IMG/VR virus record: IMGVR_UViG_2541047785_000008 | Length of the DNA: 28,379 nt | From: a virus | Taxonomy: Duplodnaviria > Heunggongvirae > Uroviricota > Caudoviricetes | Strand: one strand, 5' to 3' | Shown: positions 21,752 to 21,965 of the stretch, piece by piece | How the letters are laid out: each line of letters starts with the position of its first letter | Position numbering within the stretch: the stretch's first letter is position 1 | Notes under the pieces: model-generated | What the model was told of the DNA's origin: nothing | Databases searched by the model: none | What the model saw: only the letters and a program-made list of their open reading frames with translations | Translations under genes and position numbers: made by a program

Positions 21752-21856
21752 TTGTTTTATCCTTGTTTAGTCTATTGAACTGTTAAAAAACCATTATCGC
21801 TTTTATCGATAGATTTGTTATGTATCAATCGAATTTTATATATATAAGTGAAATAA

Positions 21857-21904
21857 TTCGTGGGCGGAAACTCGCTTTTTGGCCCTTTTCGCCGGAGAAC
21901 CTAG
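21857..21904. promoter_or_regulatory. GC-rich island upstream of the small terminase gene, candidate cos (cohesive end) site
   Basis: CGTGGGCGGAAACTCGCTTTTTGGCCCTTTTCGCCGGAGAACCTAGCG stands out in AT-rich non-coding DNA about 110-150 nt upstream of the terS start; it resembles lambda cosN (GGGCGGCGACCT, TTTTCGC nearby); a GpA-type terminase implies cos packaging. Confidence 0.3.
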
Positions 21905-21965
21905 CGATAATCGTTATCATTTGCATTAATAGTTTAGTATACTAAACACAGTACTAAACTCTGGT

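Follow-up and report, generated by a model that had tools for sequence, protein, structure and literature searches.

Genes at the locus and decay of the prophage

The window, the whole 28,379-nt stretch of tailed-phage DNA analyzed here, carries nearly all of its genes on the minus strand. Among them, terS (21194-21751, minus) encodes a small terminase subunit of 185 aa that was recognized by its match to PHROG 57 "terminase small subunit" (E=1.4e-16); it has no Pfam match, and its similarity to lambda Nu1 in BLASTP is not significant (E=0.12). Downstream of terS lie a gpA-type terL, a lambda-type portal gene, an S78 protease fused to an HK97-type capsid protein, and a siphovirus tail module. 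The S78 prohead protease, an acidic scaffold-like region, and the HK97-type capsid domain are spread across two adjacent ORFs (15381-17304, minus), which look like a single protease-scaffold-capsid fusion gene that has been split.

The large terminase gene, terL (19350-21279, minus), is a pseudogene of the gpA family whose fragments match Pfam GpA_ATPase and GpA_nuclease on separate ORFs, bearing out the type of terminase named in a first-pass annotation made from the sequence alone. Three reading frames are needed to follow an intact 629-aa homologue through it (tblastn), and four in-frame stops fall at 20235, 20223, 20181, and 20178. Single-frame terL genes of about 628 aa are found in loci L004, L007-L013, and L065-L067 and in Pluralibacter gergoviae ATCC 33028, and one intact terL of the family can be aligned with lambda gpA across 579 aa (E=8e-14, 22% identical). 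The portal gene (17252-18807, minus) is likewise a split pseudogene with several frame changes. Identical terL lesions are present in the sister prophage L002 and in the Escherichia coli copies carrying the same terS, and terL and portal are frameshifted in every E. coli copy examined; a related prophage in E. coli whose terS is different has both genes split as well, at other positions.

The host is E. coli, with the exact terS found in 154 index blocks, including GCA_000458195.1, and matches in 12 of 5,426 complete genomes. We conclude that this prophage, with 36% GC, is a defective element passed on vertically in E. coli and that, because its terL and portal genes are pseudogenes, it makes no virions of its own. 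Elsewhere in the window, a 157-aa ORF (27326-27799, minus) resembles phage HNH endonuclease families (PHROG 953, E=2.6e-39) over their C-terminal part alone and is probably a homing-endonuclease remnant.

On the far side of the noncoding DNA upstream of terS, the last gene before the element described below is a small conserved gene with the motif GYEYSR (21987-22340, minus), for which no Pfam or PHROG family was found. Its copy in the window lacks a start codon and is disrupted by a frameshift; an intact homologue of 125 aa occupies the same position in L004 (2488-2865), and the GYEYSR gene precedes the element in several relatives.

A GC-rich island upstream of terS

The first-pass annotation had placed a candidate cos site, together with terminase-binding sequences, on a GC-rich island at 21857-21904. 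The island itself is real. Its GC content of 56.3%, against a window mean of 36.0%, is equaled or exceeded in only 0.8% of all 48-nt windows of the stretch, and the DNA beside it has 22.9% GC toward terS (21752-21856) and 35% on the other flank. Along the ORF-free stretch 21752-22610 (860 nt), the GC peak starts at 21859. The island lies 106 to 153 nt upstream of the terS ATG (21751, minus strand).

The motifs that had been picked out within and beside the island are present in the DNA, and most of the roles proposed for them were not supported. GGGCGG is found at 21862 and in four copies in the window, and TTTTCGCC is found once, at 21886. Both had been likened to lambda cosN, but they read away from terS, opposite to the lambda GGGCGGCGACCT...TTTTCGC; moreover, TTTTCGCC falls within a hypervariable linker and is absent even from a 99%-identical sister prophage. 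The palindrome TATCGATA lies at 21804-21811, not at 21805-21812, and is found in three copies in the window and otherwise only in near-identical E. coli copies, which lends no support to a function. The imperfect inverted repeat also exists, with arms at 21806-21814 (TCGATAGAT) and 21824-21832 (ATCAATCGA), 1 to 2 bases off the coordinates first given. Its arms are complementary at eight of nine positions, a quality that we estimate to be about what chance would produce in 100 nt of AT-rich DNA (approximately 0.3 expected). Neither the palindrome nor the inverted repeat can be upheld as a terminase site, since both are confined to near-identical E. coli copies and the conserved part is the ACATAACAA between the arms. 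The proposal of an integration host factor (IHF) site is equally without support, as the region holds no exact IHF consensus.

A noncoding element linked to terS throughout the family

To place the island in a family context, homologues of terS were gathered from 58 IMG/VR loci and from 6 loci in species-representative genomes (Rahnella, Pseudescherichia, Buttiauxella, Pluralibacter, Scandinavium, and one metagenome-assembled genome). In about 40 of these loci, a composite element lies 80 to 175 nt upstream of terS, and an nhmmer profile built from the elements of these relatives was then run over all loci. The profile matches all 61 loci that have a terS homologue (49 to 100% identical) and have kept upstream DNA, in every case upstream of terS and on the terS strand. 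The window has a single match, at 21903-21818 on the minus strand (E=5e-14), 62 to 151 nt upstream of terS and on the same strand. Since the profile of the relatives matches the window once and all 61 related loci, the island is not a product of chance. A roughly 100-nt noncoding element accompanies this terS family in every locus examined.

The distance between element and gene is not constant. In a second group of relatives (group 2), the element lies 620 to 730 nt upstream of terS with an unrelated opposite-strand gene between them, and its core, made up of blocks A to D described below, is intact despite this separation of about 600 nt. The inserted gene, situated between block D and terS, encodes approximately 190 aa and has no Pfam family; an example is found in L026 (1896-2516, minus; longest ORF, 206 aa), and an opposite-strand insertion at the same position occurs in about 25 further loci.

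Conserved noncoding DNA directly upstream of the first late gene could also be the control region of the late operon for packaging and head genes, that is, a promoter with activator sites or an antitermination site rather than a packaging site. A weak sigma-70-like match, ATAACA-17-GATAAT (21821-21793), in which block D would serve as the -35 element, fits this reading. Its -10 partner is not conserved among relatives, and the region contains fewer promoter-like matches than shuffled sequence does (5 versus 10.3). The group 2 arrangement, with the element about 600 nt from terS and an opposite-strand gene in between, argues against late control as well, as do a GC-rich quasi-symmetric core and a fixed 30-nt offset from that core to block A, which are unlike the layout of a promoter. 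The upstream genes are on the same strand, so that read-through is available, as in lambda. We therefore regard a late control region as quite unlikely.

Another possibility is that the island acts as RNA, as an intrinsic terminator or other hairpin ending the upstream operon. There is one weak terminator match on the plus strand (21860-21875), a 5-bp stem followed by TTTTT, and the predicted fold of the plus-strand island has an energy of -16.2 kcal/mol (z=-1.8). The plus strand, though, is antisense to all neighboring genes, and terminator-like matches are at the level expected from shuffles (2 versus 1.6). Across the 51 distinct elements aligned, RNAalifold predicts no consensus pair on either strand, the mean folding z score is -0.46, and we saw no compensatory base changes that would preserve a hairpin. 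The absence of predicted pairs and this mean z score indicate a DNA site and not a hairpin, and with only a 5-bp antisense stem in its favor, the terminator or RNA structure was rejected as very improbable.

Blocks A to D and a hypervariable linker

The alignment of 51 distinct elements has 90 profile columns, and a window coordinate equals 21908 minus the column number. Read on the minus strand toward terS, the element opens with block A, AGGTTCTCC (21902-21894; columns 6 to 14), the most conserved block among the 51 elements, at 1.51 bits per column. Its first seven bases, the heptamer AGGTTCT (21902-21896), form the part that resembles lambda cosQ; some relatives have GGGTCCCCC as block A, and in some the heptamer is GGGTCCC. 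Block A is followed by a linker, GGCGAAAAGGGCCAAAAA in the window (21893-21876; columns 15 to 32), with 0.34 bits per column. The length of the linker is held to 17 to 19 nt while its sequence is hypervariable, with 40 distinct sequences among the 51 elements. The linker of the sister prophage L002 is wholly different between flanks that are 98.5% identical, and that of E. coli C2 is identical to the window linker at 12 of 18 positions. Replacement of the entire linker is seen even where two prophages are 98% identical to either side of it, yet one allele, GGCAGCCCAGCTTAGAAC, is common to L007, L047, and L067, whose terS genes differ strongly.

Block B, GCGAGTTTCCGCCCACG (21875-21859; columns 33 to 49; 1.19 bits per column), is the putative cosN. 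Columns G33, G35, and T40 are invariant in the 51 elements, and C48 is present in 50 of them, at a spacing of 13 nt from G35. These bases frame a CG-N12-CG arrangement (C34-G35 and C48-G49) in the window and in 31 of the 51 elements; in 12 of the 51, columns 48 and 49 are CA, not CG. A dyad scan, run before the lambda-type model was formed, put the best center of symmetry outside a TATA run at column 41.5, the midpoint of the 12-mer, and found no dyad symmetry between blocks A and B.

An AT-rich segment (21858-21827), similar to the I2 segment of lambda, separates block B from block D and contains block C, TTATATATATAA (21850-21838; columns 58 to 70; 1.21 bits per column). Block D, ACATAACAAAT (21823-21813), is a lineage-specific motif at a position like that of the lambda R3 site and is the candidate TerS binding site. 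It starts 49 to 52 nt after column 36, the predicted end of the chromosome, in all 51 elements and falls into five sequence types that track terS relatedness. The window type is the same ACATAACAA that sits between the inverted-repeat arms at 21806-21814 and 21824-21832. No clear R-type repeats and no R3-R2-R1 triplet were found in the window.

Several short repeats surround these blocks. Octamers GTTTAGTA and TACTAAAC form a cluster at 21932-21988, just beyond block A, that includes a 16-bp palindrome, GTTTAGTATACTAAAC, and all three copies of TACTAAAC in the window; the sister prophage L002 lacks this cluster. The related GACTAAAC lies within 21765-21780, just before the terS ribosome-binding site. 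An 11-mer, CTAGCGATAAT, occurs twice (21901-21911 and 22046-22056), and its core occurs once in inverted form on the opposite side of the core element (ATTATCGCT, 21793-21801). These copies could be protein-binding sites or chance occurrences.

Comparison with lambda cos

The cos junctions of lambda and N15 were read from their sequence records. In lambda, the heptamer GGGTCCT (48473-48479), the cosQ of work by the Feiss laboratory, starts 30 nt before the top-strand nick, and the junction then reads CG-GGGCGGCGACCT-CG. N15 has the same heptamer, followed by a linker that agrees with the lambda linker at 5 of 11 bases at positions -17 to -7. The hexamer ATTATC just before cosQ also occurs in both phages.

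The layout of the window element, in the proposed register, resembles that of lambda cos. It lies upstream of terS and of a gpA-family terL and is oriented with them. A conserved heptamer starts 30 nt before a CG-N12-CG core with partial two-fold symmetry, block A beginning 30 columns before G35, the same offset as that of the lambda GGGTCCT. A variable linker separates the cosQ-like and cosN-like parts, and the core is followed by AT-rich DNA and, about 50 nt in, by a motif resembling a TerS site. In lambda, the AT-rich I2 (bp 18 to 50) lies between cosN and cosB (PMC4856287), and R3 is at bp 48 to 65 in both lambda and N15 (PMC9026076). The block D sequences of some relatives (CCCGAAACGA and CCCACGACAGG) resemble the lambda R-site core, GGAAACGACAG, in the R2 orientation, a likeness on which the comparison does not draw.

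The likeness consists of geometry and a few bases, with no detectable sequence homology. The family profile does not match the lambda cos junction in nhmmer, and scanning the linear lambda genome with it under --max yielded nothing significant. When a position weight matrix of columns 5 to 51 was scanned over both strands of the circularized lambda genome, lambda cos in the register that equates cosQ with block A ranked 81 among 97,112 positions with a score of -8.8 bits, a register chosen post hoc; the other 60 registers within 30 nt on either side of lambda cos scored -25 bits or worse. Because the profile has no match to lambda cos despite this rank, we place the element outside the lambda cos sequence family. 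The two 12-mers are unrelated except for GGGCGG on the opposite strand. Also unlike lambda, the TerS of the family is no relative of Nu1, its TerL is only 22% identical to gpA, and the window element has no IHF consensus and no obvious R3-R2-R1 triplet. The element is therefore best described as similar to lambda cos in layout and not a member of its sequence family. We also considered a homology between the family GCGAGTTTTCG and lambda bp 14 to 25 (GCGGGTTTTCGC); it would require an overhang of 18 nt, at odds with the remaining geometric matches, and was dropped except as part of the rival reading below.

On the lambda model, the comparison would put the cohesive end of the window prophage at 21861-21872, a 12-nt sequence reading TGGGCGGAAACT on the plus strand and AGTTTCCGCCCA on the terS strand, with CG on both sides. 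The predicted nicks lie between 21873 and 21872 on the minus strand and between 21860 and 21861 on the plus strand. The GGGCGG at 21862 falls inside this predicted 12-mer and points in the direction away from terS.

The hypervariable linker offers a different way of reading the same site, in which the 17 to 19 nt of the linker would themselves be the cohesive end, cut where the linker meets blocks A and B, and each lineage would have a private sticky end. Conserved blocks at a fixed spacing do flank free sequence here, and P2-type phages, with 5' ends of 19 nt, provide an analogue for the length. The flanks of the lambda and family sites would also be alike if the family core were 6 to 7 nt longer, lambda having AGGTTACG and CGCGGGTTTTCGC around 12 nt and the family AGGTTCTCC and (C)GCGAGTTT(T)CG around 18 nt, read on the terS strand. 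Under such an arrangement, the terminase would measure between conserved flanks and ignore the interior, and even prophages that are 98% identical would have "bar-coded" ends, which would prevent annealing or joint packaging among co-resident relatives. The bases at the linker edges, though, are not two-fold symmetric, whereas the CG...CG of block B is, about column 41.5. A cohesive end in the linker would also move block D to about +70 instead of the R3-equivalent +50 and would abolish the 30-nt cosQ offset. Selection, moreover, acts on the left half of the overhang in lambda-like phages (PMC4669245). Unrelated linkers in near-identical prophages are more readily accounted for if the linker moves together with the far arm. 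On balance, we consider a cohesive end in the linker unlikely and retain the 12-mer of block B as the predicted end.

Mosaic joints and a possibly exchangeable arm

The sister prophage L002 is 98.5% identical to the window from 21875 downwards and unrelated above that point, except for block A. Joints between close relatives fall at 21903/4, 21875/6, and 21863, and the homology of the E. coli complete genomes to the window stops at 21863, 21875, or 21903. Of the pairs compared, 36 have only the terS-side arm in common, and in every one of them the first cluster of mismatches met going upstream is at column 34 or to the left of it. The joints in our family fit a chromosome end at block B with an exposed and exchangeable cosQ-side arm (PMC4856287), an argument that is suggestive only.

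A gene for an OLD-family ATP-dependent nuclease (AAA and TOPRIM domains) lies directly beyond block A in L097 (5033-6853; E. coli C2) and in L094 (750-2570). It represents anti-phage defense cargo on the variable arm beside cos.

Contigs ending at the predicted chromosome end were also looked for. None of the 12 IMG/VR contigs and 7 metagenome contigs found by a motif just inside the element has a terminus within the element. The L051 contig starts 8 nt before block A, and because strains diverge at the same point, this start is probably an assembly break.

A probable cos region

Taken together, we consider it probable, at roughly 70%, that 21813-21902 (minus) is the cos region of a lineage of gpA-terminase temperate siphoviruses of Enterobacterales, with the order cosQ, linker, cosN, I2, and cosB, and that in this prophage it is most likely a relic. 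The conserved architecture and its association with a gpA-type terL are directly observed, while we infer the cutting, the nick positions, and the 12-nt 5' overhang from comparative anatomy. The first-pass annotation was thus right about the place and the kind of site, a terS-linked element with lambda-like geometry, and wrong about its motif details and orientation.

By analogy with lambda, such a site would work as follows. In the order toward terS, its parts are block A (AGGTTCTCC), the linker, the core CG-AGTTTCCGCCCA-CG, AT-rich DNA, and ACATAACAA, followed by terS and terL. TerS bound at block D would position TerL, which would make two nicks 12 bp apart in block B. The terminase would then stay on the terS-side end and package leftwards in window coordinates, and block A would be needed for the terminating cut at the next cos.

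Because terL and portal are pseudogenes, the site in the window itself is most likely a relic, unless it is served by a matching helper. No such helper is known.

Relation to known cos systems

Among characterized systems, the "simple" cos of phage N15, with R3 and an accessory rR2, is similar in that the compact A-D core of about 100 nt looks self-contained (PMC4669245). In some relatives an inserted gene stands between the core and terS, which suggests that a single main TerS site suffices. N15 shares its cosQ and cosN sequences with lambda, whereas the window family does not.

PICI-A and its relatives, phage-inducible chromosomal islands of E. coli, likewise keep a cos on an element that is unable to package itself (PMC9026076). 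In cosQ and cosN these islands hardly differ from the lambda-like phages that help them, and they encode Rpp. The prophage studied here is, by contrast, a full one with head and tail genes, now decayed. In principle, a helper with the right specificity could package a defective prophage whose cos is intact (PMC9026076).

The third comparison is with the P2 family, in which defense cargo is also found beside cos, as the OLD nuclease is here. P2-family phages use a different terminase family, and their overhangs are conserved, not hypervariable.

The lineage stands apart from cultured phages in the collection that we searched. A DNA search of this collection with the region gave no match, tblastn matches to terS were at most about 30% identical, and the best tblastn match to terL was 37% identical; this collection offers no characterized relative whose ends are known.

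Significance

As a kind of finding, the element would be an ordinary one, a further lambda-type cos site identified by its layout. For the window, its significance is modest, as the site lies in a decayed prophage, and its chief use is as a landmark dividing the two arms of the phage genome.

For the family, confirmation would define the packaging site of an uncharacterized lineage of temperate phages of Enterobacterales that has no cultured member in the phage collection searched. The 51 natural variants provide a comparative set for asking which cos positions a gpA-type nuclease reads. Moreover, if confirmed, the element would show that a phage whose TerS is unrelated to that of lambda, and whose TerL is 22% identical, can retain the lambda layout, in which cosQ at -30 and a CG-12-CG core are followed by an AT-rich spacer and, near +50, a TerS site.
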